Part shown: piece after piece, positions 7,935 to 38,462 of the stretch | How positions within the stretch are numbered: position 1 is the first letter of the stretch | Layout: each line of letters begins with the position of its first letter | Source: Candidatus Forterrea multitransposorum CG_2015-17_Forterrea_25_41 | Lineage (GTDB): Archaea; Iainarchaeota; Iainarchaeia; Iainarchaeales; CSSED10-239 | Direction: 5' to 3' | NCBI GenBank assembly: GCA_009392915.1 | Contig: CP045477.1 | Location: forward strand, 1 to 64,000 | Length of the DNA stretch: 64,000 nt | The notes under the pieces: model-generated | What the model was told of the DNA's origin: nothing | Databases searched by the model: none | Seen by the model: the letters and a program-made list of their open reading frames with translations, nothing else | Program-made: the position numbers and the translations under genes

Positions 7935-10253
7935 TTGTTTTTATCTATAATATATATATTTATGATTAAATCAATATATCTTGAAAATTGGAAAACCCAC
8001 CTTGATTCTAAGCTTTCCTTTCAAAAAGGAACAAACATACTCTTAGGTGTAATTGGTTCTGGAAAATCAAGTGTTGTTGATGCTATTTGTTATGCTTTAT
8101 ATGGTACATTTCCAACACTTTCAAACAGGAAAATAACTTTAGATGAAACTATAATGTTTAAACCTGTACAAAAAGAAAGTTTTAAGGTTATTTTAGAGCT
8201 TGTTCAAGAAAATAAATTATATTTAATAGAAAGAGAAGTATTTTCTGGAAATAAATCAAACTCTGCAAAAGTATATCTTGAAGGAAAGTTATTGGCTGGT
8301 CCTAAAAAAAGTGATGTTGATGAATTTATTTCAAAACTTTTAGGTATTGATTATAATCTTTTTATAAAAGTTGTATATTCTCAACAAAATGAAATTGATT
8401 ATTTTTTAAAAATAGCTCCTTCTAAAAGAAAAGAACAGTTTGATGATCTTTTTGGTATATCTCATTTTGAAAATATTAAAGTTTCAACAAGAGAAATTGA
8501 TAGACTTTTAAATCATGAAATTGATAAAAATGAACTTTTATTAAAACAAATAACTACTCAAATTTCAAATTATAATATAGAAGAACTTTTAGAAAAAGAA
8601 AAAGAAATAGCTGAAAAAATAACTTCTCTTGAAAAAGAAATTTTAGAAAAAGAAGTAAAAACTTTTTCTTTAAGTAAAGTAATTTCTGAAAAGAAGCTAG
8701 TTAAAGAAAAGCATGAATCCTTAACTTCTCAAATATCTTTATTTTCGTCCAGGCTTGAAGACTTTAATAAAGAATATACCTCTCTTTTAGAAAAAACTAA
8801 TCTTTCTTCTAAAGAAGAACTTGATCTCTTTGAAAAAGAGGTTTTTAAGAAAGAAAAATTCTTTAAAGAAAAACAAAATAAAAACAAAGAAACTGAGATT
8901 TTAAAAAAATCTTTAGATAACAAAATTTCTTTTTATGAAAATAATATTTTTCAAAACCAAGAAAGGATAAAAGAGCTTCTTTTAAAAATAGAAAAAGAAG
9001 AATTAACTATTCCTTTAATAGAGGAAAAGAAAAAATATCTTTTAGAAGAAATTGATTCTCTTAATATTTTAAAAATATCTTTACTTTCAAAACAAAAAGA
9101 TTTAGAAAAATCTTTTTATGAAATTTCTAAAGGCTTTTCAAACTGTCCTGTCTGTCAAACCCCTTTTACTGCAGATAAATTAACTGAAACTAAAGAGCAT
9201 ATAGATAAAGAGCTTTCAAGTCTATCTTTAAACCTAAAGGATTATTTAGAAAAAATAAAAGAAAAAGAAGATTTATTAAATCTGTTAAAAATAAAAGAAA
9301 AAACTTTAGAAAGAAATTTCTTAATTGAAAAACAAATTGAACAATTAAACAAAATAATTCTAGAAAATACTTATTTAAAAGAAAATGCCTTAACTGAAAT
9401 TAATTCTTTAGAAAAAATAGATGACTTGTCTGCTTTAGAAAAAGAAATTTTAAAAATAAAAGAGAGTCTTTCTCTTAAAAAAGAACTTTTAAAAATATCT
9501 GAAAAAATAAAAGAATACACCGAAAAAACAAAATTACAAAAAGAAGAGCTTTCAAAAATAAATTTTTCTCAAGAAGAATATCTAAATCTTTTAACAGATT
9601 ATAAAGGCTTAGAAAATAATTTCCTGCAAATAAAAGAATCCTTAACAAACTATAAATCCTTAAAAGAAAATTTAAAAAAACAATTAGAAAACCTAACCTC
9701 TCTTTCAAAACAAAAAGAAGAAGTAAGCCTTTCTTTTACAAAAATAAATAATAAAAAACAAGATCTTTCTTATTTTTTAAAAGCAATTGATAATAGCCAA
9801 CTACAGTTAAGAAAAGTTTTAATAGATAACATAAATCAAGCTCTTTCAATCATCTGGCCAAAAGTATATCCTTACAAAGATTATTTATCAGCAAGATTAA
9901 ATGCAGATAATGATTATATCTTAGAGGTCTTAACTTTAAAAAATAACTGGATAAGGGTTGAAGGTTTATTAAGTGGAGGAGAGAGGGCTTGTGCTTCACT
10001 TTCCATAAGGATTGCAATTTCTTTGATTCTTACAAAGAAATTAGGCCTTTTAATTCTTGATGAACCAACACATAATTTAGATGAAAAATCAATAGAGGCT
10101 TTATCAAATGTCTTAGAGGAAGAGCTTCCTGATCTTGTTGAGCAAATATTTATTGTGACTCATGATAATAAGCTTCTTGAAACAGTAAATGCAACTAAGT
10201 TTATAATAGAGAGAGATAAAGAAAACGATTCTGCTTCAAGAGTTAATTTTTAA
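7935..10253 (+). CDS. rad50: DNA double-strand break repair ATPase Rad50 (SMC-like)
   Basis: N-terminal Walker A (GVIGSGKSS), long coiled-coils, a central zinc hook CPVCQ, a C-terminal signature LSGGER, and Walker B LLILDEPT with D-loop. Confidence 0.85.
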   Translation: MFLSIIYIFMIKSIYLENWKTHLDSKLSFQKGTNILLGVIGSGKSSVVDAICYALYGTFPTLSNRKITLDETIMFKPVQKESFKVILELVQENKLYLIEREVFSGNKSNSAKVYLEGKLLAGPKKSDVDEFISKLLGIDYNLFIKVVYSQQNEIDYFLKIAPSKRKEQFDDLFGISHFENIKVSTREIDRLLNHEIDKNELLLKQITTQISNYNIEELLEKEKEIAEKITSLEKEILEKEVKTFSLSKVISEKKLVKEKHESLTSQISLFSSRLEDFNKEYTSLLEKTNLSSKEELDLFEKEVFKKEKFFKEKQNKNKETEILKKSLDNKISFYENNIFQNQERIKELLLKIEKEELTIPLIEEKKKYLLEEIDSLNILKISLLSKQKDLEKSFYEISKGFSNCPVCQTPFTADKLTETKEHIDKELSSLSLNLKDYLEKIKEKEDLLNLLKIKEKTLERNFLIEKQIEQLNKIILENTYLKENALTEINSLEKIDDLSALEKEILKIKESLSLKKELLKISEKIKEYTEKTKLQKEELSKINFSQEEYLNLLTDYKGLENNFLQIKESLTNYKSLKENLKKQLENLTSLSKQKEEVSLSFTKINNKKQDLSYFLKAIDNSQLQLRKVLIDNINQALSIIWPKVYPYKDYLSARLNADNDYILEVLTLKNNWIRVEGLLSGGERACASLSIRIAISLILTKKLGLLILDEPTHNLDEKSIEALSNVLEEELPDLVEQIFIVTHDNKLLETVNATKFIIERDKENDSASRVNF

Positions 10254-16297: not shown

Positions 16298-18844
16298 GTG
16301 TTTTTTATGGATGATGCAAATTTAATGCTTTTAAAAAAGAAAGTAAAAGCTATAAAACAATATAAAGGCCAAGGTACTCAACTTATAAGTCTTTATCTTC
16401 CACCTGATGCAGATAGAAGTTCTGCAACAAAACAATTAACTGATGAAATGAGTCAATCTTCAAATATTAAGAGTGCTCAGACTAGAAAAAATGTACAAGC
16501 AGCTTTAAAAAGAATTATTAATTATTTAAAACAAATTGATTTTAAACTTCCTGAAACAGGTTTAGTTTTATTTTCTGGAGATGTTTCAACTAATCCTTCT
16601 AAATCAGATGTAATTTTACTTGCAATTGCACCTCCTGTAAGACTTACAACTAAGCTTTATTGGTGTGATTCAACATTTCACATAGCTCCTTTAGAAGATA
16701 TGGCACAAACAGATGATGTTTATGGTTTAGTTGTTCTTGACAAACGAGAAGCAACAGTTGCTATTTTAAGAGGAAAATCTAAAGAAATTCTTTTTTCAGA
16801 AACCTCAAATGTTCCTGGTAAAACAAAAGCCGGGGGGCAATGTTTAAAAGATGCTTTTGTATCTTTATCTGATGGGAATTTAATAGATGTTAGTGAAATT
16901 TCTAAAAAGGATATTCTTTCTTCTATGAATTTTAAACAAAATAAATTAATTAATTCTAAGGTTTTAGATAATTGGTCAGTTTCTAAAAATAAAACATATA
17001 TTATTAAAACAAAAGCTCCTGGTACAGAAATAAAAGCTAGTGAAGATCATATATTTTTTGTTTTAACTCCAGATGGTGTTGTTGAAAAAGCTTCAAAAGA
17101 TTTAACTTTAAATGATTATTTGTTATTTCCAGAAAAATTATCTTATAAAAATAAAATTTGGTCTTTTGATACTAAAAAATATATTTCTAAATTAAATAAA
17201 CCTTCTATAAAGATACCTATAAAACTTAATAATGTATTTGCTAAATTTTTAGGTTATTTATTAGGTGATGGTTCTATTGAAACTGATAGATTAACTTTTT
17301 ATGAATCTAGAAAAGATGTTATTTTAGAATATAAAAAGTTATTTGATAAATATTTTAATGTAAATTCTTCTTTAACTTTTAGAGATTCTAAAAATTATTA
17401 TCAATTAAGAGTTAATTCAACTGCTCTTGTAAGATTAATTAAAGAAGAATTTAAGGAAATTAAAAAAGCAAGAGATTCTTTAATACCTTCTAAAATATTA
17501 ACTTCTTCTAATAAAATATTAGCTAATTTTTTAAAAGGATTTTATGATGCTGAAGGTTATATTAATACTTCTAGAAAATCAATAGATATTGGAATAAATA
17601 ATAAAAAAATTGCACAACAACTTCAATTATCATTATTAAGATTTTCAATTATTGGATCTTTACAAGAATATGATAATAAACAAAATCCTTATACAAATAA
17701 CCATAGGTTTGTGATTTCAATTTCTGATAAAGAGTCAATAGATTCTTTTGAAAAAAATATTAATTTTACTTCTTTTGAAAAGCAAAAAAAAATAAAAAAA
17801 ATTCAAAAATTAAAAACAAACATGAGTTTCTCAAGAACACTTCCTGTATATGGTAGTCAGGTTAGATCTGTTGTTACAAAACATGGTTATAATTTAGAAC
17901 TTTTCCCAAAAGTGAGTAGTTTTTTCAATAATAATAGAATGCTTAGTAAATGCTTTTTTAAAAGTTCTGTTTTAGATTATGTTAAAGATAAATCTCTTTT
18001 AAAAGATTTAATTAAATTTTATAATATGCCATTTTTTGCTGCAAAGATAAATTCTATATTTATTGAAAAAAAGAAAACAATTATGACAGACATTTCTGTT
18101 GCTAATAAATCTTTTATTGCAAATGGATTAATTGTTCATAATTCAGCACATAGATTCGAAAGACTAAGAGATAAATATGAAGAAGAGTTTTATAAGAGAG
18201 TAGGTTCTAAAGTAAATACTGCTTTTGTAGATCTTGATAATTTTAAAGGAATGATTGTTGGTGGTCCTGGACTTACTAAAAATGAATTTTTAGAAATTGG
18301 TGATTTAGACCACAGAATAAAAGATAAAGTTTTAGGAACTGTAGATACTTCTTATACAGATGAGTCAGGTATAAAAGAAGTTTTAGATAAATCTGAAGAT
18401 ATTTTAAAAGAAACTGGTTTAGTTCATGAAAGAAAATTAATTAATAAGTTTTTTGAAGACTTAGCAAAAACAGGCCTTGCAAATTATGGTTTTCAAGATG
18501 TAATTGATGCCTTAAATATTGGTAAAGCTTCAACTGTTTTAGTGTCTGAAGGTTTAGAATGGACTGTTTTAATTTTTAAATGTTTATCAGACAAATCTAG
18601 ATTTATAAAAATTGTTAAAGATAAACATGAAGTTTCTGATACTATCTCAAAATTTGAAAATTCTCCAACAGATTGTCCAGAAGGTAAAGCAGAACTTGTT
18701 GAAGAAGTTGATATATATGATTATTTTATAGATATTTCTAAAAATACAAGTGCAAAAGTTGAACTTATTTCTATTGAAACTTTAGAAGGTAAACAATTTT
18801 TTGAAACTTTTGGAGGGCTTGCAGCTTTCTTAAGATATAGGTAA
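16298..18844 (+). CDS. prf1: Peptide chain release factor aRF1 interrupted by an in-frame intein
   Basis: The exteins (181 + 233 aa) have the aRF1 architecture, including the catalytic GGQ followed by SAHRFERLR. A 434-aa insertion begins with Cys and ends with His-Asn, followed by Ser. Confidence 0.8.
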   Translation: MFFMDDANLMLLKKKVKAIKQYKGQGTQLISLYLPPDADRSSATKQLTDEMSQSSNIKSAQTRKNVQAALKRIINYLKQIDFKLPETGLVLFSGDVSTNPSKSDVILLAIAPPVRLTTKLYWCDSTFHIAPLEDMAQTDDVYGLVVLDKREATVAILRGKSKEILFSETSNVPGKTKAGGQCLKDAFVSLSDGNLIDVSEISKKDILSSMNFKQNKLINSKVLDNWSVSKNKTYIIKTKAPGTEIKASEDHIFFVLTPDGVVEKASKDLTLNDYLLFPEKLSYKNKIWSFDTKKYISKLNKPSIKIPIKLNNVFAKFLGYLLGDGSIETDRLTFYESRKDVILEYKKLFDKYFNVNSSLTFRDSKNYYQLRVNSTALVRLIKEEFKEIKKARDSLIPSKILTSSNKILANFLKGFYDAEGYINTSRKSIDIGINNKKIAQQLQLSLLRFSIIGSLQEYDNKQNPYTNNHRFVISISDKESIDSFEKNINFTSFEKQKKIKKIQKLKTNMSFSRTLPVYGSQVRSVVTKHGYNLELFPKVSSFFNNNRMLSKCFFKSSVLDYVKDKSLLKDLIKFYNMPFFAAKINSIFIEKKKTIMTDISVANKSFIANGLIVHNSAHRFERLRDKYEEEFYKRVGSKVNTAFVDLDNFKGMIVGGPGLTKNEFLEIGDLDHRIKDKVLGTVDTSYTDESGIKEVLDKSEDILKETGLVHERKLINKFFEDLAKTGLANYGFQDVIDALNIGKASTVLVSEGLEWTVLIFKCLSDKSRFIKIVKDKHEVSDTISKFENSPTDCPEGKAELVEEVDIYDYFIDISKNTSAKVELISIETLEGKQFFETFGGLAAFLRYR
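16841..18142 (+). mobile_element. Intein with a LAGLIDADG homing-endonuclease domain inserted in aRF1 between Gln181 (of GGQ) and Ser
   Basis: N-terminal Cys, C-terminal VHN with a +1 Ser, and two LAGLIDADG-type blocks (FLGYLLGDGS and LKGFYDAEGYI). Confidence 0.75.
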
Positions 18845-23625: not shown

Positions 23626-24737
23626 AATTGTGTTGCATAACTCTTTTTAAAAGTATTGTCTAACCTATTTTATTACTAGATAAAGGAGGTTAGACAATAT
23701 GAATATTAAGAACGAAAAGATTAATAAAAGGAACTGGTCAAAGATAAATTATGGAAAAACAAGACAAATCTTGTTTTTACTAGATAAAAACATTATTTTT
23801 AGTGAAAATGAAAGACTAGTTTCCCAAAATAAAAACAAACCAGGAAGACAATTTATATATAGTGATAGAATAATAGAACTATTAATTGATCTTAAAAATT
23901 ATTTTAAATTTGATTATCGTAAACTACAGGCATTCTGCCTGTTGTTTAATAATGTTATAAAAATAAAAACACCTGACTTTACAACTATTTGTAGAAGAAT
24001 GCACAAATTAGAATTATTTCTAAAAAATATAAAAACAAAAAAAGAACCAACCTTTATAGCTATAGATGGTTCTGGACTTCAAACTACTAATCGAGGAGAA
24101 TGGCTTAGATTAATACACAAAAAAGGAAAAATAAACTTAAGAAATGGATTTGTAAAATTAGTGATTGCAACAGATGTTGCATCTGGAGAAATAACTGGAG
24201 TGTATATTTCAGATGATTCTGATTTTGAAAATAAAAGCTTATCAGATTTATTATACCAAACAATAAATAATCAAAACCAAGAAGTCAAAGGACTTCTTGG
24301 AGATGGGGCATACGATTCTTATGATAACTTTGATATGCTTGATGATATGGGAATAAAACCAATTATCAAAATCAGAAAGAATGCAATTACAACAGAACCT
24401 AATGACGATTATTTAAAAAGAAGAAGAAAACTTGGAAAAAAGAAAAAAATAAAAAGAATTGAAGTTGCAAAAAAGCAACTTAAAAATGTAGATGACTGGA
24501 AACAAAAAAATGAGTATAATAAAAGGTGGGTTGTTGAATACACGTTTAGTGTATTCAAAAGACTATTCGGACATAGTGTGTACTCTAAAAGAAAGAAATA
24601 TGTCAAAAATGAAGTAATTTCTAAAGTAAATTTGTATAATAAATTATTAAATATCAATTAAGAAAAAAATAAAATGAATTAAAAAAAGAAATAAGCTAAA
24701 AATATTGTGTAAAACACAATATTTGTGCAACACAATT
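23626..24737 (+). mobile_element. IS5-family-like insertion sequence
   Basis: Perfect 12-bp terminal inverted repeats aattgtgttgca at 23626-23637 and, reverse-complemented, at 24726-24737, extendable to ~17 bp. They flank a single DDE transposase ORF. Flanking T-rich sequence is consistent with an ~8-bp target duplication (ttttttat). Confidence 0.65.
23699..24661 (+). CDS. DDE transposase (IS5/IS4 superfamily)
   Basis: Catalytic blocks IAIDGSG, LGDGAYDS and VVEYTFSVFKRLFG, the E-containing block typical of IS5-family transposases. Confidence 0.65.
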   Translation: MNIKNEKINKRNWSKINYGKTRQILFLLDKNIIFSENERLVSQNKNKPGRQFIYSDRIIELLIDLKNYFKFDYRKLQAFCLLFNNVIKIKTPDFTTICRRMHKLELFLKNIKTKKEPTFIAIDGSGLQTTNRGEWLRLIHKKGKINLRNGFVKLVIATDVASGEITGVYISDDSDFENKSLSDLLYQTINNQNQEVKGLLGDGAYDSYDNFDMLDDMGIKPIIKIRKNAITTEPNDDYLKRRRKLGKKKKIKRIEVAKKQLKNVDDWKQKNEYNKRWVVEYTFSVFKRLFGHSVYSKRKKYVKNEVISKVNLYNKLLNIN

Positions 24738-24818: not shown

Positions 24819-26192
24819 ATGGCTATAGACAAAAGATTTTTTTTAGGGATAACTATTAGTAAAAAAAGAAAAGCAATTTCTCCTTTAATTGCCACTATTC
24901 TTTTAATAGTTGTTGCCGTTGCAATTATAGCTATTATTGTTTCCTGGGGAAAAGGATTTACCAATGATTCTTTAAGCAAAGCCTCTGGTCTTGAAATTTA
25001 CACTGAATCAGAAACTTCTTTTTACTTGCAAGTAAAAAATTCAATAAACGGAAGAACTGTTGTTCAATATAATCCTCCTTATAATTCTCCTCACACCTCT
25101 TTAACCATAACAGGTTATAGCCTACATGGTAACACGAATATTAATCCCATAGATCCACCAATTACAATAACTGCAAACCAAACTGCAGTTATTGATCATG
25201 GTATTTTATTTCCAGAATTAAATTTAGTTTTATATTTGGATAATGATCGAATGATTATTAAAACTGATCTTTTACAAACTATTAAATCTCCTCTTTCTTG
25301 TCCAGAAGGTTATGTTTCTGTTCCAGGAAACCACTTATATGGAACTATGAATGAAAGTGGGGGTTTTTGTGTTTCAAAATATGAGATGAAAATGGATAGA
25401 ACAGGAGATGGAATAGGAAATCTTGTAGCTGATTATCCTGATTGTAACACCGGTTCTTTAACATATAATACTTATAGTTATGAATTATGCCCTACACCAG
25501 GCACTTTAGTTTCTACTCCAGAAGGTTCTCCCATAGCAAGAATCACACAAACTGAAAGCATATCAGCCTGTGAAGCTATTGGTGGTCATTTAATAACAAA
25601 TAACGAATGGATGACCATTGTACGAAACATAGAACAAGTTCCATCTAATTGGTCAGGTGGAGCAGTTGGTGATGGCTACCTTCCAAGAGGGAATTCATCT
25701 TCTTCAGGAGCTATGGAAGGCTTTGATCAACTTTCAGGAACTACCAAAAGAACCTTGACCTTAACAAACGGAGAGGTAATTTGGGATTTAGCAGGAAATG
25801 TAAGACAATGGACCAGTGACACTATTCAAAGAAAGGACCAGCCTGATGGTTTTAATAATGTAGATGATAGTAATAATACTTCTGGTTTTAATTGGTTTGA
25901 TTATTTTAAGGGCGGTGGAGTAGATCAATATATTTATTCTGATAATTTAGGTAACACCACCTTAAAGTATAAAGATTTATTTTTATTAACTAGTAATACT
26001 TATAATGCAACAGATAATGGTGTTGGAAGGATTTATACTTATAGTGATTTTAGTGATACTAGTACAACTGAGTACGCGTTTTTGCGCGGTGGTCACTGGG
26101 GCAATGGCACTAATGCCGGGGTCTTGCACCTGGTCTTGAACAAGACTCCTGGGTCCCGGAGCATCCTCATCGGCCTGCGCTGTGTCAAGTAG
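24819..26192 (+). CDS. DGR target (variable) protein: pilin-like surface protein with a C-terminal FGE/C-type-lectin-fold domain
   Basis: N-terminal class III signal/archaeal pilin-like segment KKRKAISPLIATILLIVVAVAI. FGE/DUF1566-type motifs GGHLITNNEWMTIV, GNVRQWTSD, and a C-terminal FLRGGHWGNG...GLRCVK coinciding with the VR repeat. Confidence 0.8.
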   Translation: MAIDKRFFLGITISKKRKAISPLIATILLIVVAVAIIAIIVSWGKGFTNDSLSKASGLEIYTESETSFYLQVKNSINGRTVVQYNPPYNSPHTSLTITGYSLHGNTNINPIDPPITITANQTAVIDHGILFPELNLVLYLDNDRMIIKTDLLQTIKSPLSCPEGYVSVPGNHLYGTMNESGGFCVSKYEMKMDRTGDGIGNLVADYPDCNTGSLTYNTYSYELCPTPGTLVSTPEGSPIARITQTESISACEAIGGHLITNNEWMTIVRNIEQVPSNWSGGAVGDGYLPRGNSSSSGAMEGFDQLSGTTKRTLTLTNGEVIWDLAGNVRQWTSDTIQRKDQPDGFNNVDDSNNTSGFNWFDYFKGGGVDQYIYSDNLGNTTLKYKDLFLLTSNTYNATDNGVGRIYTYSDFSDTSTTEYAFLRGGHWGNGTNAGVLHLVLNKTPGSRSILIGLRCVK

Positions 26193-26195
26193 TTT
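26075..26195 (+). repeat. DGR variable repeat (VR) at the 3' end of the target gene
   Basis: The 121-bp GC-rich segment matches 27300-27420 at 108 of 121 positions. 12 of the 13 mismatches correspond to adenines in the other copy. Confidence 0.85.
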
Positions 26196-26498: not shown

Positions 26499-26885
26499 AT
26501 GAGTTTAGTTGGAAATGAAAAAGGAATTCTAAATTTTGGTGTTTACAAGGAGCTTTTCCCAATCGTTATTGAAACTTATAATTTTTTAGAAAATAATAAA
26601 TCTTTATTTAAAGTAGATTTTGTTTATACAGATACTGTTAAAAATTTAATAGATATTCTTTCTTTTCTTTCCAAAGGGTATAATAAATTTCATTCTAATG
26701 AAAAATCTTTACTTTACTCTTATTCAAGAGATTGTGTTTCTACAACCCAATCTAATCTTTTAATATTATCTGAACTTAATAAAGATCTCTCAAAAGAAAA
26801 AACCTTATATTTTTATAATCAATTTGAGGATAAAATAAAGTATTTTAATGGTTTAATAAAAAAGATTGAAGAAAATAAAAACTAG
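26499..26885 (+). CDS. Hypothetical protein located between the DGR target and avd
   Basis: 128-aa ORF of unknown function within the DGR cassette. Confidence 0.3.
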   Translation: MSLVGNEKGILNFGVYKELFPIVIETYNFLENNKSLFKVDFVYTDTVKNLIDILSFLSKGYNKFHSNEKSLLYSYSRDCVSTTQSNLLILSELNKDLSKEKTLYFYNQFEDKIKYFNGLIKKIEENKN

Positions 26886-26896
26886 GGTATATTATT

Positions 26897-27226
26897 ATGT
26901 TATTTGACTTAAAGTTATATAAAGAAACTTATAACTTTTTACTTTATATTTATCCTGAAATAAATAAATTCCCTAAATCAGATAAATATTCTTTAGGAGA
27001 GGATATTAAAAAAACAACTATTTCTTTAATGTCAAATATTGTTCTTTTTTCAAAGCATAATGAAAATACTTTAAAAGAAGCAGATAAAAACTTAGAATTA
27101 CTAAGAATATATATTAGGCTTTCTTTTGATTTAAAAATAATCTCTTTTAAAAAATATGAGGTTATTTCAAGGCAATTAAATGATATTGGTAATTTATTAG
27201 GTGGTCTTTTAAAACAAAAGATTTAA
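26897..27226 (+). CDS. avd: DGR accessory variability determinant (Avd)-like four-helix-bundle protein
   Basis: 109 aa with the pattern FPKSDKYSLGEDIKKTTISLMSNI, reminiscent of the bAvd/23S-rRNA-intervening-sequence protein family. It is positioned immediately upstream of TR. Confidence 0.6.
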   Translation: MLFDLKLYKETYNFLLYIYPEINKFPKSDKYSLGEDIKKTTISLMSNIVLFSKHNENTLKEADKNLELLRIYIRLSFDLKIISFKKYEVISRQLNDIGNLLGGLLKQKI

Positions 27227-27299
27227 ATATTTTTTCAACTAATAGTTATGTTGTTCTTTTAAATAAAAAGAATAGGGCTTTTACAGAAAAAAACAGGTG

Positions 27300-27420
27300 C
27301 GCGTTTTTGCGCGGTGGTAACTGGAACAATGGCACTAATGCCGGGGTCTTGAACCTGAACTTGAACAATACTCCTGGGAACCGGAACAACAACATCGGCC
27401 TGCGCTGTGTCAAGTAGTTT
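27300..27420 (+). repeat. DGR template repeat (TR)
   Basis: Intergenic 121-bp copy of VR, adenine-rich in AAC codons, located between avd and the RT gene. Confidence 0.85.
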
Positions 27421-27678: not shown

Positions 27679-28695
27679 ATGAAATCATACAATAACCTTT
27701 GGCAAGAATTCACTTCTTTTAAAAATATTTTTAATGCCTATAAAAAAGCAAGAAAGTCCACACCAAACAAAAAGTATATCTTGCAATTTACCACAAATTT
27801 AGAAAAGGAGTTATTCTTATTACAAGATCAATTAATTTCAGAAAATTTTCAATTTTCTCCTTACAGAAGTTTTAAAGTTTATGAACCTAAAGAAAGAACA
27901 ATAAGTGCACCTATTTTCAGGGATGTTGTTGTTCAGCATGCCATAATAAACATTATTGAACCTATTTTTGATAAAACCTTTATAGATAACTCTTTTGCTT
28001 GTAGAAAAGGAAAAGGCACACATAAAGGGCTTTTTGAAATTAAAAAAGTAATTCAAACCCCAAATCATCCAAAATACTATTTAAAACAAGATGTAAAGAA
28101 ATACTTTCCTTCAGTTCATAAACCTACCTTAAAAGAAATAATTTTTAAAAGAATTAAGGATGCAAGATTACTTTCTCTAATATATAAAATAATTGATAGT
28201 TATTCTTTTGATTTAAATCAAATTCAAAAAGGTATCCCTATAGGTAATTTAACCTCTCAGTTGTTTGCAAATATTTATTTAAACCATTTAGATCAGTATG
28301 TTAAGCATTCTTTAAAAATTAAACATTATTATAGATATGTAGATGATTTTTTAATATTTTCAAACAATAAAAGAAAATTACATGTTTTTAGAAGAAAAAT
28401 AAAATTATTTTTAAGTAAAGAACTATTATTAGATGTTCCAAAAAATAAAACTTATATAAACTTAGTAAGTAAAGGAGTTGATTTTTTAGGTTATAAGGTA
28501 TTTCCTTCAAACATAAGATTAAGAAAATCAAATCTTAAAAGATTTCTTCTAAGACAAAATAAAAATAACTTTCTTCTAAAAAAAAATCAAATTTCTAAAC
28601 TTAACTATAATTTTTCTCTTTTTTCTTTTTTAGGTTATGCAAAGCATGCAAACTCTTATAATCTCTTAAGTACTTTAAATATTAATGAGTTATAG
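27679..28695 (+). CDS. DGR reverse transcriptase
   Basis: RT motifs FRDVVVQHAI, the DGR-diagnostic motif 4 PIGNLTSQLFANIYLN (IGxxxSQ), and motif 5 YYRYVDDFLIF (YxDD). 338 aa; adjacent to TR. Confidence 0.85.
   Translation: MKSYNNLWQEFTSFKNIFNAYKKARKSTPNKKYILQFTTNLEKELFLLQDQLISENFQFSPYRSFKVYEPKERTISAPIFRDVVVQHAIINIIEPIFDKTFIDNSFACRKGKGTHKGLFEIKKVIQTPNHPKYYLKQDVKKYFPSVHKPTLKEIIFKRIKDARLLSLIYKIIDSYSFDLNQIQKGIPIGNLTSQLFANIYLNHLDQYVKHSLKIKHYYRYVDDFLIFSNNKRKLHVFRRKIKLFLSKELLLDVPKNKTYINLVSKGVDFLGYKVFPSNIRLRKSNLKRFLLRQNKNNFLLKKNQISKLNYNFSLFSFLGYAKHANSYNLLSTLNINEL
28589..28687 (+). repeat. 99-bp direct repeat, copy 1 (3' end of the RT coding sequence)
   Basis: Near-identical to 30138-30236. Confidence 0.8.
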
Positions 28696-28838
28696 TTTAT
28701 TTTTATTATGGGCACTTGAGCGTCTATTTTAAACTTAAATTATAATCTTTTACTAACGCACTATACCTTAATTATAATCTTCTATCAAAAGACTATATTT
28801 AAAAATGTTTTTATTATATATTATATTAGTGATAAAAT

Positions 28839-30104
28839 ATGGATAAAGCTTTTTTAAGAAACGTTGTTTCTGACCAGTATGAAGATTTAAAAGATGTTTC
28901 AAAAACAATACAAAGATATGATTCAAAAGAAATAGCGCGCTTTGTAAATAATCCTGCTATATCTATAATTTCAGGAGTAAGGCGTTGTGGTAAGTCCACT
29001 TTTTTAGAGCAGATAATAAATTTATATTATAAAAATAACTTTTATTATTTTGATTTTTCTGATGAAAGAATTGCAAAATTTGAAACTGCTGACTTTCAAA
29101 CATTATATGAGGTGTTTTTAGAAAAATTTGGAAAAAGACAGGCTTTTTTCTTTGATGAAATACAAGGAGTTCCAGAATGGAATAAATTTGTTAATAGAAT
29201 GAAAAAGATTGGGCATAAATGTTTTGTAACCGGTTCAAATTCAAATTTGTTAAGTCAAGAAATATCTACTTATCTAACAGGAAGACATATTGATAAAATC
29301 TTATTCCCTTTTTCCTTTAAAGAATATTTAACGTATAAAAATATTAATGTAGATTTAGATTCTACAAAATCAAGAACCTTAATTATTAAAGAGTTTAAAA
29401 ATTACTTTAAAATAGGTGGTTTTCCAGAGGTTGTTTTAACAAACGATACTTCAATTTTATTAAATATTTATTCTGACATAATTTCTAAAGATATAATTGA
29501 AAGATTTAGGATTAATGATGTTTCTTTATTTAAAGAATTTTGTAATTATGTAATTTCTTTATCTACGAATGAATTTACTTTTAAATCATTAAAAGATAAT
29601 TTTAATATTCAGAATATTACTACTGTTTCAAACTATCTTGATTATCTTAAATTAACTTACCTTGTTTATGAAGTTAAAAGATTTTCTTCTTCATTACAAA
29701 AATTAAATAAATATCCAAAAAAATATTATTGTATAGATAATGGTTTATTAAATAAAGTGGGTTTTGGATATTCAATAGAGGAAACTAGATTTTTAGAAAA
29801 TCAAGTTTTTATTGAACTTTGGAGAAATAATCCGCAATCTGAAATTTATTATTATAGAGATAAGGATAATAAAGAATGTGATTTTTTATTGTTAAATGAT
29901 AGAAAAGTAGTTAAGGCTATTCAAGTGTGTTTTGCTTTTAAAAAGATAGATACTAGAAAAAGAGAAATAGAAGGTTTACTATCTGCTTTAAAAGAGTTTA
30001 ATCTAAATTATGGCGAAATTATTACTTTTGAGCATAAAGAAAAATTAAAGATAGATGGAAAAGTAATAGAGATGATTCCTGTATATGAGTGGTTATTAAA
30101 ATAA
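28839..30104 (+). CDS. DUF4143/COG1373-family AAA ATPase
   Basis: Walker A GVRRCGKST, Walker B FFFDEIQ, and a C-terminal DUF4143-like region. 421 aa. Confidence 0.65.
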   Translation: MDKAFLRNVVSDQYEDLKDVSKTIQRYDSKEIARFVNNPAISIISGVRRCGKSTFLEQIINLYYKNNFYYFDFSDERIAKFETADFQTLYEVFLEKFGKRQAFFFDEIQGVPEWNKFVNRMKKIGHKCFVTGSNSNLLSQEISTYLTGRHIDKILFPFSFKEYLTYKNINVDLDSTKSRTLIIKEFKNYFKIGGFPEVVLTNDTSILLNIYSDIISKDIIERFRINDVSLFKEFCNYVISLSTNEFTFKSLKDNFNIQNITTVSNYLDYLKLTYLVYEVKRFSSSLQKLNKYPKKYYCIDNGLLNKVGFGYSIEETRFLENQVFIELWRNNPQSEIYYYRDKDNKECDFLLLNDRKVVKAIQVCFAFKKIDTRKREIEGLLSALKEFNLNYGEIITFEHKEKLKIDGKVIEMIPVYEWLLK

Positions 30105-30137
30105 TTTTTTTTAATTTTAAAAAAGGCTTTACCTTTA

Positions 30138-30236
30138 AAATTTCTAAACTTAACTATAATTTTTCTCTTTTTTCTTTTTTAGGTTATGCAAAGCATGCAA
30201 ACTCTTATAATCTCTTAAGTACTTTAAATATTAATG
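30138..30236 (+). repeat. 99-bp direct repeat, copy 2 (intergenic)
   Basis: Near-identical copy of the RT 3' end, downstream of the ATPase gene. Confidence 0.8.
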
Positions 30237-30336
30237 GTTTTATAGTGTAGATTCTCTTTGCATTAAAAATATTGTTTTTGAAAAAAACAAAGCTTTAAAT
30301 TTTGTTTATTTATATAATATATTAGGTGAAAGCAAT

Positions 30337-30549
30337 ATGAAATATAGAGTTTTAATAGAACAAGACGAAGATGGTATCTTTGTTGCTGAATGCCCTAGTC
30401 TTCCAGGTGCAATTTCTCAAGGAAAAACAAGAGAAGAAGCAATAATAAATATTAAAGAAGCCATAAAAGGTTATCTTGAAAGTTTAAAGATAGCTAATGA
30501 ACCAATTCCTTCTCCAATATCTGAAGAAATAATTGATATTTATGGATAA
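30337..30549 (+). CDS. hicB: HicB-like antitoxin (UPF0150)
   Basis: MKYRVLIEQDEDGIFVAECPSLPGAISQGKTREEA is typical of HicB. It overlaps the downstream hicA. Confidence 0.6.
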   Translation: MKYRVLIEQDEDGIFVAECPSLPGAISQGKTREEAIINIKEAIKGYLESLKIANEPIPSPISEEIIDIYG

Positions 30550-30766
30550 ACTGCCTATTATATCTGGTCAAGATTTAATCAAATTACTTCTAAAATTAGA
30601 TTATCAAGTTCATCATCAAACTGGATCACATATTATCTTAAGACAAAATAAAGAACCTTTTAGAAGATTAACAATTCCAAACCATAAAGAAATTTCAATA
30701 GGGACTTTAAGAGCAATTATAAGGCAAGTTGGAATAACAAGAGAAGAATTTGTTAAATTATTCTAA
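30533..30766 (+). CDS. hicA: HicA-like mRNA interferase toxin
   Basis: YcfA/HicA fold signature with conserved His (QTGSHIILRQ). 77 aa. Confidence 0.6.
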   Translation: MIFMDKLPIISGQDLIKLLLKLDYQVHHQTGSHIILRQNKEPFRRLTIPNHKEISIGTLRAIIRQVGITREEFVKLF

Positions 30767-37617: not shown

Positions 37618-37699
37618 GCAGAGGTGGCGGAGTGGTCAAACGCGCCAGCCTTGAGAGCTGGAGCCTTGCGCTACACGAGTTCGAATCTCGTCCTCTGCG
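37618..37699 (+). tRNA. tRNA-Ser (anticodon TGA), type II with long variable arm
   Basis: Acceptor gcagagg/cctctgc, anticodon stem ccagc/gctgg with loop cttgaga, T-loop ttcgaat. No encoded CCA. Confidence 0.8.
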
Positions 37700-37730
37700 C
37701 TTTATCTTTTAAAATATAGGAATTTTTATT

Positions 37731-38063
37731 ATGATTAAAGAAAACATTTCTTTTCAAGATTTTTTAAAACTTGATATAAGAATTGGAACAATTGTTGAGG
37801 CTGAAGCTGTTGAGGGTTCTGATAAATTAATAAAATTAATAATTGATTTTAAAGATTTTAAAAGACAGATTTTAGCTGGTATTAAAACAAAATATCAACC
37901 AACTGATTTATTAAACAAACAAATTCCTGTTATTGTAAATTTAGAACCTAGAAAAATGATGGGTTTTGAAAGTCAAGGAATGATCTTAGCTGTTGGAGAT
38001 AAAACTTTAGATGCTTTACTTTTACCATCTGAGCCTGTATCGGAAGGCTCGATTGTACACTAA
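37731..38063 (+). CDS. tRNA-binding domain protein (Trbp111/CsaA/EMAP-like)
   Basis: LDIRIGTIVEAEAVEGSDKLIKL OB-fold tRNA-binding signature. 110 aa. Confidence 0.65.
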   Translation: MIKENISFQDFLKLDIRIGTIVEAEAVEGSDKLIKLIIDFKDFKRQILAGIKTKYQPTDLLNKQIPVIVNLEPRKMMGFESQGMILAVGDKTLDALLLPSEPVSEGSIVH

Positions 38064-38084
38064 TTTTTTTTTAAAACTAAAAAT

Positions 38085-38166
38085 GCAGAGGTGGCGGAGT
38101 GGTCAAACGCGCAAGCCTGGAAAGCTTGAGCCTCGTGCTACGCGAGTTCGAATCTCGTCCTCTGCG
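38085..38166 (+). tRNA. tRNA-Ser (anticodon GGA)
   Basis: Same scaffold as the upstream tRNA-Ser; anticodon loop ctggaaa. Confidence 0.8.
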
Positions 38167-38197
38167 CTTTTTTCTTTTTTAATTTAATATTTATTTT

Positions 38198-38286
38198 GCA
38201 GAGATGGCGGAGTGGTCAAACGCACAAGTTTCGAAAACTTGATTAAGGTTTTTTCCTTTACATGAGTTCAAATCTCATTCTCTGCG
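38198..38286 (+). tRNA. tRNA-Ser (anticodon CGA)
   Basis: Acceptor gcagaga/tctctgc, anticodon loop ttcgaaa, long variable arm, T-loop ttcaaat. Confidence 0.75.
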
Positions 38287-38462
38287 TAGCTGGTTTCGGT
38301 CAGCTAGCACCCAATGATTTTGCGTTTGTTAACGCTTATTTAAACTTTCTTTTTAAAAGAAGTGATTTTCCCCCAAAACTTTTTTTCTTTAAAAATTGTG
38401 TTTTAAAAATTTTTAATCTATTTTATATCTATTTAAAATACTTTTGCCTCTCTTTAATATTT

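Follow-up and report, generated by a model that had tools for sequence, protein, structure and literature searches.

Integration into the 3' end of a protein-coding gene is exemplified by the element e14 in the icd gene of Escherichia coli, where, according to PMC6379469 (citing Hill et al. 1989), the element supplies a replacement 3' end and the displaced original 163 bp (pseudo-icd) lie at its other end. A related arrangement is present in the first 64,000 nucleotides (hereafter the window) of contig CP045477.1 of the archaeon Candidatus Forterrea multitransposorum CG_2015-17_Forterrea_25_41 (assembly GCA_009392915.1), in which a gene coding for an AAA_14-DUF4143 ATPase, a candidate antiviral ATPase-nuclease of the PDC-S01 family, stands at the 3' end of the reverse transcriptase (RT) gene of a diversity-generating retroelement (DGR) and is bracketed by two copies, R_A and R_B, of a direct repeat R made of RT coding sequence. 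In common with e14 and phage 21 in icd (PMC6379469), the insert occupies the 3' end of a protein gene, the gene is kept intact, and the direct repeats are long; conversely, e14, a prophage of 15 kb, brings an integrase of its own and uses a defined core site, whereas the insert considered here comprises one gene in 1.45 kb, codes for no recombinase, and has relatives in varied targets. PDC-S01 proteins are ATPases fused to a PD-(D/E)XK-superfamily domain, and the family is reported as the fourth most common prokaryotic defence candidate, enriched in archaea and experimentally unvalidated (PMC12988326, PMC3424549); a role in defence was proposed because its genes are found embedded in other systems (10.1101/2024.01.29.577857). 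The gene in the window resembles these in its full-length match to the family model, in its ATPase plus PD-(D/E)XK architecture, and in its embedding between conflict-related genes (the DGR and HicBA), and it departs from the published PDC-S01 accounts, as far as they are searchable, in its flanking target duplications, the defence role of the family being itself a candidate one.

Other described systems share part of this layout. Integrative elements that target tRNA genes, together with their integrase-less derivatives, likewise carry repeats of the target 3' end, and their tandem accretion has a counterpart at tRNA-Thr in two loci with homologous cassettes (L023, L102); unlike them, the window has a repeat of 99 nt of RT coding sequence and no integrase found nearby, and targets are not shared across the family. 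Among the features of integrative elements, the target repeats at both ends and a one-copy empty site are present, and a tyrosine or serine recombinase of their own is absent. The Xer-dependent dif modules of Acinetobacter plasmids are small units with one or two genes, commonly toxin-antitoxin or accessory ones, that have no recombinase of their own, stand in arrays, and are shuffled between replicons (PMC6449649, PMC13141974). The small recombinase-less units gathered in arrays on DPANN-type contigs (L102, L104, L024) are similar to them, whereas the boundaries of dif modules are 28-bp pdif sites whose orientation alternates and not, as for the cassette, a duplicated landing gene; no dif-like site was identified at the window cassette, although no formal search was made. 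Typical integron cassettes differ from the present ones, which have promoters of their own. Lastly, Campbell-type integration of suicide plasmids also duplicates the homology segment on both sides and is reversible through the repeats, but it is a laboratory procedure, whereas natural circles carrying the gene and a piece of its future target would have to operate here. Gene-end duplication at an integrated element is therefore known; what is new is its occurrence in a DGR RT that still works, around a defence cassette of a single gene and no recombinase.

The two copies of R are identical at 99/99 positions in both the repeat search and the pairwise alignment, and the 99-bp direct repeat that the original prediction had placed at these two sites as near-perfect is in fact perfect. 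The sequence has two matches and no mismatches in the window, against 0 expected from 100 shuffles (coordinates in Table 1). R_A forms the last 33 codons of the RT open reading frame (ORF), and R_B begins 33 nt past the ATPase stop codon and lies in the same reading frame, within a purely mechanical ORF at 30089-30250. Past the 99 nt, a patch of 2-3 nt (AG versus GTT) is followed in both copies by TTATAGT, the "tatag" already reported after each copy, and with patch and tail the alignable repeat reaches ~110 nt with 108 identities, while on the left edge the similarity ends abruptly. Both copies with identical flanks are found in at least 14 loci from independent JGI and ENA (MEGAHIT k141) assemblies, and the strain of L109 has one single-nucleotide polymorphism, in copy A only.

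A site free of the insert is found in locus L017 (GCA_015657875.1), whose RT is 76% identical to that of the window (79% overall in the DNA of the RT genes) and whose gene order is the same on both sides (target, 128-aa ORF, bAvd, RT, FKBP26, proteasome): in that locus, FKBP26 comes immediately after the RT, the ATPase and HicBA are both missing, and the RT end is present once. This is the empty site in a related genome that had been proposed as a check, and it bears out the reading of the repeats as an insertion or duplication scar. Moreover, the genome of the window holds a second, paralogous DGR, whose RT (P0246, 76% identical) has no ATPase and a single copy of its end (...AATGGTTTTGATAGG, ...NGFDRIF*); located at L106 3239-7032, on contigs of 0.6-0.8 Mb, it comprises a target, a 131-aa ORF, bAvd, and the RT, and adjoins the PheRS genes. 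The R_B tail AATGGTTTTATAG (...NINGFIV*), and not the R_A tail (...AATGAGTTATAG, ...NINEL*), matches the end of this paralogous RT (AATGGTTTTGATAG, ...NGFDRIF*). Because of this match, R_B with its tail is shown, to judge from the sequence, to be the displaced ancestral RT end, still joined to the chromosomal downstream flank, and the present RT tail would thus have come with, or arisen at, the left end of the insert. The RT C-terminus is accordingly chimeric in part, as suspected, the change being small and confined to the last residues (NINEL* now, NINGFIV* displaced). A 15-nt match to L017, TTAAAAATATTGTTT, placed ~13-23 nt past the RT-frame stop in each, gives weak support to the R_B flank as the original one. 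No relative with a duplicated RT end and no gene between the copies was found, and a metagenome scan for RT ends of the type of L017 and of L025, a diverged strain described below (TTTAGGKTATGCAAAGCATGCAAAT), returned no matches. The repeat is very probably the insertion footprint of the ATPase cassette.

The duplicated segment belongs to a retroelement that is in working order. R encodes a genuine conserved C-terminal motif of the RT clade, SLFSFLGYAKHANSYNLL; the homologues of the RT are DGR-type RTs with the same C-terminal motif, and its closest NCBIfam match is a group II RT model, below the cut-off. An RT next to Avd, a template repeat (TR) and a variable repeat (VR) that differ at template adenines, and a VR at the 3' end of the target gene are the features that assign the system to the DGRs; specifically, TR and VR form a pair of 124 nt, 89% identical, with 12/14 of the TR-to-VR mismatches at TR adenines. 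Among L001-L014, time-series or sample assemblies that are otherwise identical, three VR versions occur, all with the ATPase insertion and identical repeats. Because these versions all stand beside the insertion, the RT is shown to be active in its present form, and they indicate ongoing DGR mutagenesis in the population. A special conserved DNA element within R was also considered and rejected, since the R core (up to 93%) is conserved no more than other RT motifs.

The insert between the repeats spans 1,450 bp, and its one gene is preceded by 151 nt and followed by 33 nt. The ATPase, which is the sole ORF there and the one DUF4143 ATPase copy in the window, matches the PADLOC model PDC-S01 with an E-value of 1.5e-102 over residues 22-421, and in 119 relatives Walker A GxxGxGKS, DE, and E346-x-D348...Q362 are invariant, the canonical lysine being absent from the nuclease motif (ExD...Q-V). 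In a Foldseek search of its AlphaFold2 model (predicted local distance difference test, pLDDT, 89.8) against the PDB, the best folds are Orc1/Cdc6, STAND NTPases, RFC, and RuvB, with no recombinase- or transposase-like fold and no strand-transfer domain, while a sequence search of the PDB gives nothing significant and no NCBIfam model matches. The ratio of non-synonymous to synonymous substitution rates (dN/dS) is 0.13 with respect to the L025 copy, and the gene is under purifying selection. The left arm of the insert is conserved in L019, L023, L024, L025, and L026; within it, the motif cttaaNtataat that the original prediction had seen recur at ~28733 and ~28762 corresponds to two 32-nt units at 28730-28793, which close homologues have as unmistakable tandem copies of TTRTCTTTTAGAAAAAGACTATAAT, containing a palindrome, and which are degenerate in the window. 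Such a tandem operator-like pair lies upstream of all close homologues of the ATPase, and the upstream region probably functions as the own promoter/operator of the gene. On the other side, the T-rich motif TTTTAATTTTAAAAAAGG corresponds to GCGCTTTTCACTTTAGG, found after homologous cassettes. No recombinase gene lies between the repeats, nor is any integrase present in the Pfam lists of neighbouring genes on these contigs; a transposase (DDE, HUH, serine, tyrosine) between the repeats was likewise sought with no result through Pfam, PADLOC, NCBIfam, and the fold search. The cassette has no convincing terminal inverted repeats, the best end-to-end pair being 34 nt, 76% complementary, AT-rich, and not terminal, and in place of a short target-site duplication of fixed length there are repeats of variable length (28-157 nt). 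Viral contigs contain neither a relative of the ATPase nor a copy of R, and hence give no sign of a viral vehicle.

The same cassette occurs in other genomic contexts. ATPase homologues 66-96% identical are found in unrelated surroundings: they follow an NYN gene in L019-L022, a SpoIIM-like gene and a tRNA in L023, and a hydrolase gene in L024, and in L027, L029, and L102, three or four different DUF4143 ATPases form tandem arrays. All share the promoter region and the post-stop motif, and the homologues 81-87% identical, set between unrelated genes, have the same promoter region over ~115 nt. In L023, the cassette follows a tRNA-Thr gene, 28-46 nt of whose 3' end recur after the cassette and again after the next one, a two-gene toxin-antitoxin pair, which is then followed by a second ATPase. 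The arrays of L102, L104, L024, and L019 repeat one ~45-nt element, which comes after many of their genes and is composed of GCGCTTTTCACTTTAGG and a hairpin like the T-arm/acceptor end of tRNA-Thr, and they look like series of small integrase-less cassettes; a Rfam scan of five cassette-array loci returned tRNA-Thr only. The element lies at 2506, 3270, 5187, 6615, and 9993 of L102, at 100, 2670, 5746, 7159, and 7868 of L104, at 112, 2535, 3513, and 6264 of L024, and at 9493, 9862, 11278, and 11898 of L019, and the array genes of these DPANN-type contigs include several DUF4143 ATPases, HicA-like and RelE-like toxin-antitoxin pairs, NYN, and deformylase-methyltransferase, in a layout like that of integron or dif-module arrays and with no recombinase in view. 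A metagenome scan with the promoter-start pattern recovered 5 loci only, which inform on the cassette arrays, and no new RT-linked copy. L025 (SRR14932604), in which the ATPase DNA is 96.4% identical, has the arrangement of the window: its RT end (...LRTLGICEV*) leads into the left arm and the ATPase, and past the spacer comes a copy of R on the right. The ATPase gene thus behaves as a moving cassette, and the suggested att-like site of a selfish ATPase element is upheld in part, by the unrelated contexts and by the repeated tRNA-Thr 3' end of L023. In a plasmid collection, 238 records carry distant homologues of the ATPase (26-36% identical), 170 of them Acinetobacter plasmid records (homologues 26% identical); Acinetobacter is a genus known for Xer-dependent dif modules.

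The footprint extends to the wider family. In a survey of 68 loci with relatives of the ATPase (33-82% identical) on one-genome-per-species contigs, the 450 nt upstream of every ORF of 250-600 aa were aligned to the 350 nt downstream, with a local-alignment score of at least 20 as the threshold, and flanking direct repeats were found around 15/75 ATPase-family ORFs against 3/146 other ORFs of the same loci (Fisher p = 1e-5). The repeats measure 28-157 nt across the positive loci, and in an independent repeat search the pair that flanks the ATPase is the largest direct repeat in each locus tested. Examples come from Thermoplasmata (L078, 124 nt, 98%), Nanoarchaeota (L097, 157 nt, 85%), Terrimonas (L089, ~140 nt, 92% / 78%), Margulisiibacteriota (L095, 104 nt, 85%), Paceibacterota (L049, 79 nt, 86%), and Iainarchaeum (L036, 39 nt, 87%). 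The start-to-start spacing is 1.4-1.6 kb in most, with up to 1.8 kb in L071, and the repeats therefore enclose one gene. Among the duplicated sequences, 3' ends come from MCM and a sulfatase, and a 3' part from a nucleotidyltransferase gene; 5' ends come from genes for a WecG transferase, for an aminotransferase, and for a glycine-rich protein that is secreted; and one is intergenic, between an amino-acid kinase gene and a TPD-domain gene. The targets are unrelated across the family and have no sequence in common, and one intact copy of the neighbouring gene is kept in every case. The duplication in L095 comprises the middle part of a small gene, whose right-hand copy gains a new ATG from the right end of the cassette; at L095 5290-5300, a Shine-Dalgarno-like stretch and ATGAAT, in frame with the right-hand copy, replace the first four codons of the gene. 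The three controls that score positive are all cassette-like in turn (in L024, a gene with an array element on either side; in L045, HTH-Fic; and in L069, an Arch_ATPase/DUF234-like gene), and for this reason the footprint may belong to a class of defence-type cassettes rather than to the ATPase alone. The HTH-Fic gene at L045 5365-6801, beside the ATPase, has a perfect 51-nt direct repeat with a TTGACA box and palindromes, and could represent either a further cassette with this kind of footprint or the duplication of an operator. The literature on DUF4143, COG1373, AAA_14, and PDC-S01 describes, as far as it is searchable, neither flanking repeats nor mobility, and the wider repeat pattern around PDC-S01 genes is, as far as could be found, undescribed.

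Overall, these observations are best explained by the insertion-duplication of a self-contained cassette, to which a probability of about one half is assigned; the Campbell-type route in particular falls somewhat short of even odds. Specifically, a circle carrying the cassette and a copy of the target gene end would meet the resident RT gene, and a single reciprocal crossover would produce the order gene end, insert, displaced gene end, in which the RT ORF is completed by the left copy and a new tail of two codons, and the original end, now displaced, forms the right copy. As the cassette encodes no recombinase, the crossover would be carried out by host homologous recombination or by an enzyme acting in trans. 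Two perfect 99-bp repeats would make the event reversible, with excision to a 1,549-bp circle followed by re-entry, or with gene conversion, and either process would homogenise the copies, which could be why they are still identical. Support for a carried copy comes from the diverged repeats of L095, L089, and L049, in which 21/32 differing codons are synonymous (synonymous to non-synonymous by hand count, 11:3, 6:4, and 4:4, respectively), a share of 66% against ~40% expected, by an estimate made for this analysis, for a relic decaying in place; this excess fits one copy having evolved in a functional gene of another lineage, and thus a carried copy over a fresh duplication, and e14 in icd presents this pattern too (PMC6379469). 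Moreover, between the window and L025, the ATPase has a synonymous divergence (dS) of 0.13 and the arms are 17-21% diverged, whereas R_A and R_B of the window agree at all 99 positions; in L025, the visible 59 nt of the right-hand R equal the R of the window, with an adjoining spacer only 79% identical. At a divergence of 5-10%, the probability of 0 differences in 99 neutral sites is 0.006 to 3e-5. The RT-ATPase-R arrangement therefore predates the split between the window and L025, and since the copies are identical despite this age, they must have been homogenised, through conversion or cycles of excision and re-entry, or else R-carrying related cassettes entered the site more than once.

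Several observations weigh against insertion-duplication. An empty site would be spelled RT body-R-GTTTTATAGTGTAG and a circle or tandem cassette ...GGCTTTACCTTTA-R-AGTTATAGTTTATT, and no circular form, excision product, or empty-site allele was found in this population, in which at least 14 contigs are all filled. The targets differ from lineage to lineage, and carried homology cannot explain the first arrival of the cassette at a new target. Repeats of ~100 nt that are 85% identical and have no long identical runs, as in L095, would be poor substrates for RecA/RadA-type recombination, if they were that different at insertion. The sequence just after R_A shares with the RT-downstream region of L017 only ~10 AT-rich homologous bases; the synonymous-site argument covers three loci and 32 codons; and in some of the 15 positive loci (L064, L069/L070, and L019 with its array element) the flanking repeats are elements spread over the genome and not duplicated target, so that ~10-11 clear target duplications remain.

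Among the competing accounts, an assembly artefact, through a k-mer-sized repeat or a strain chimera, would draw on the length of 99, a common k value, and on the contigs of L015 and L016 (from ENA ERZ27293364 and JGI 3300009424), which come from independent pipelines and stop at an identical position, 3 nt into R_A from its left edge (window 28592). These two contigs nonetheless continue across R_B, and their break is compatible with what is expected from a second left-hand context for R and the left arm, in a circle or a tandem copy. Given that 14 contigs from various samples and assemblers, including MEGAHIT k141, span both copies with unique sequence on all four sides, that the diverged strain L025 has the same arrangement, and that the polymorphism of L109 affects copy A only, an artefact is rejected as having a negligible probability. 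Replication slippage or template switching might have duplicated the RT end locally, with the ATPase arriving in or beside the duplication through an unrelated event; this is likewise very improbable: tandem and segmental duplications are common and the left boundary of the repeat has no recognisable signal, but L017 and the paralogous DGR each have a single RT end, and the same geometry surrounds homologous genes in many phyla, far more commonly than it surrounds their neighbours. The repeats could also be the attL and attR of a tyrosine or serine recombinase, encoded elsewhere and acting on a cis-mobilisable cassette, or lost as a larger element shrank. The tandem cassettes of L023 and L102, at or after the tRNA-Thr 3' end and each ending in the 45-nt site (GCGCTTTTCACTTTAGG plus the tRNA-like hairpin), have the look of repeated integration at one att site, and e14 in icd presents the same gene-end duplication (PMC6379469). 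Set against this, no recombinase gene is present in the insert or among the listed neighbours on these contigs, the window cassette has an RT end where its relatives have the tRNA-like site, the targets of the family have no common sequence, and it is unlikely that large elements decayed repeatedly, in more than 10 lineages, until precisely one gene was left, so that the att reading is improbable.

The cassette might, in the main rival reading, which is unlikely though less so than the preceding ones, be an autonomous single-gene mobile element, in which the ATPase and its PD-(D/E)XK-type domain would act with host repair through a long and variable staggered cut; fill-in would then give a target-site duplication of 30-160 bp, and the perfect 99-nt repeat would be a young one. 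This would account better than the Campbell-type route for the diversity of targets, which are unrelated in every lineage and offer no common site. It also agrees with the minimal unit, from just upstream of the promoter to 0-60 nt past the stop, with the enrichment of the signal at this family and the presence of its sister ATPase-nuclease family, Arch_ATPase/DUF234, as one positive control, with the 98-100% identity of the repeats in the window and L078, and with the one intact neighbour copy that is always left, which would explain the "embedded" PDC-S01 genes in operons (10.1101/2024.01.29.577857). Conversely, the cassette has no terminal inverted repeats and its ends differ among repeat-flanked relatives, the fold is ORC/STAND-like with no transposase or strand-transfer domain found, and the nuclease motif has no canonical lysine. 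Moreover, the repeat copies differ mostly synonymously, which is unexpected for a relic decaying in place, the toxin-antitoxin cassette of L023 and the HTH-Fic gene of L045 have similar flanking repeats and no ATPase, and the arrangement in the window is older than the L025 split, with copies that are identical nonetheless. To our knowledge, no prokaryotic DNA transposon makes duplications so long and variable.

The genes downstream of the locus are those of HicB/HicA, FKBP26, a proteasome subunit, an archaeal CPSF-type nuclease, and the CCA-adding enzyme, and mark the organism as an AT-rich archaeon. HicBA may be a separate insertion, and L017 has at its position ~150 nt of hairpin-rich sequence unrelated to it. 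The idea that HicBA is a cassette sharing the 3' motif was considered and dropped, as the resemblance is partly common to the L017 empty site. Just upstream of the DGR target, at 23699-24661, an IS4/IS5-type DDE transposase (DDE_Tnp_1, DDE_Tnp_1_5) lies 4 kb away and outside the repeats; L017 has a UPF0175 gene in its place, and many contigs of the population end within ~200 nt of the target gene start, presumably from the multi-copy DDE element. In L006 (4905-6194), FKBP26 and the proteasome subunit are called as one 429-aa fusion ORF, probably through a frameshift or a sequencing error. Farther away, the window ORF 16298-18844 (848 aa) is syntenic with L017 1-1718, an eRF1 gene with a LAGLIDADG intein according to the Pfam list, and is long enough for an intein too; at 37618-38287, three tRNA-Ser genes (TGA, GGA, CGA) in 670 nt surround a 110-aa tRNA-binding-domain ORF, a cluster kept in L017.

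Table 1. Features of the DGR, the repeat pair, the ATPase cassette, and the adjoining HicBA pair in the window.
Feature	Coordinates	Strand	Basis and remarks
DGR target gene, FGE-sulfatase/C-type-lectin-like fold	24819..26192	+	Pfam PF03781
Variable repeat (VR), at the 3' end of the target gene	26072-26195		Repeat search
128-aa ORF of the DGR cassette, no family match	26499..26885	+	Shared with the syntenic relative and with the other DGR of the genome
bAvd accessory protein	26897..27226	+	Pfam PF22296, E 2.2e-21
Template repeat (TR)	27297..27420	+	Repeat search
DGR RT, 338 aa	27679..28695	+	Pfam RVT_1; final 2 codons and stop from the sequence just past R_A
Repeat copy A (R_A)	28589-28687	+	Completes the RT ORF; alignable tail to 28699
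Left arm	28688..28838	+	New RT tail and stop (AGTTATAG), then ATPase promoter region
Two 32-nt operator-like units	28730-28761 and 28762-28793		In the left arm; repeat search
Conserved TATTATATTAGTGAT box	Just before the ATPase ATG		In the left arm
AAA_14-DUF4143 ATPase, 421 aa	28839..30104	+	Pfam PF13173 2.1e-34, PF13635 6.2e-23
Right arm (spacer)	30105..30137	+	T-rich motif TTTTAATTTTAAAAAAGG at 30109-30126
Repeat copy B (R_B)	30138-30236	+	Displaced ancestral RT 3' end, non-coding now; tail to 30250 would read ...NINGFIV*
HicB-HicA toxin-antitoxin pair	30337..30766	+	Pfam; absent from L017

For the organism, the locus indicates that a foreign gene can settle in the coding end of the RT without halting mutagenic retrohoming, and that the last 2-4 residues of the RT C-terminus are dispensable, in the sense that they can change. 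For the family, the flanking repeats provide a possible mobility signature of a major candidate defence family, and the way in which a recombinase-less, one-gene cassette enters and leaves its sites becomes a mechanistic question. The broader proposal that PDC-S01 genes are single-gene mobile elements, or cargo of an undescribed cassette-insertion pathway, that enter with a target duplication of 30-160 bp and leave their neighbours intact is a tentative one, with the odds against it; if true, it would explain the "embedded" positions in operons, the wide spread, and the multi-copy state of these genes. If the repeat pattern is general, it would amount to a way of acquiring genes that has gone unrecognised in archaea and bacteria with small genomes, and also to an annotation problem, with duplicated gene ends and pseudo-ORFs appearing beside defence genes.

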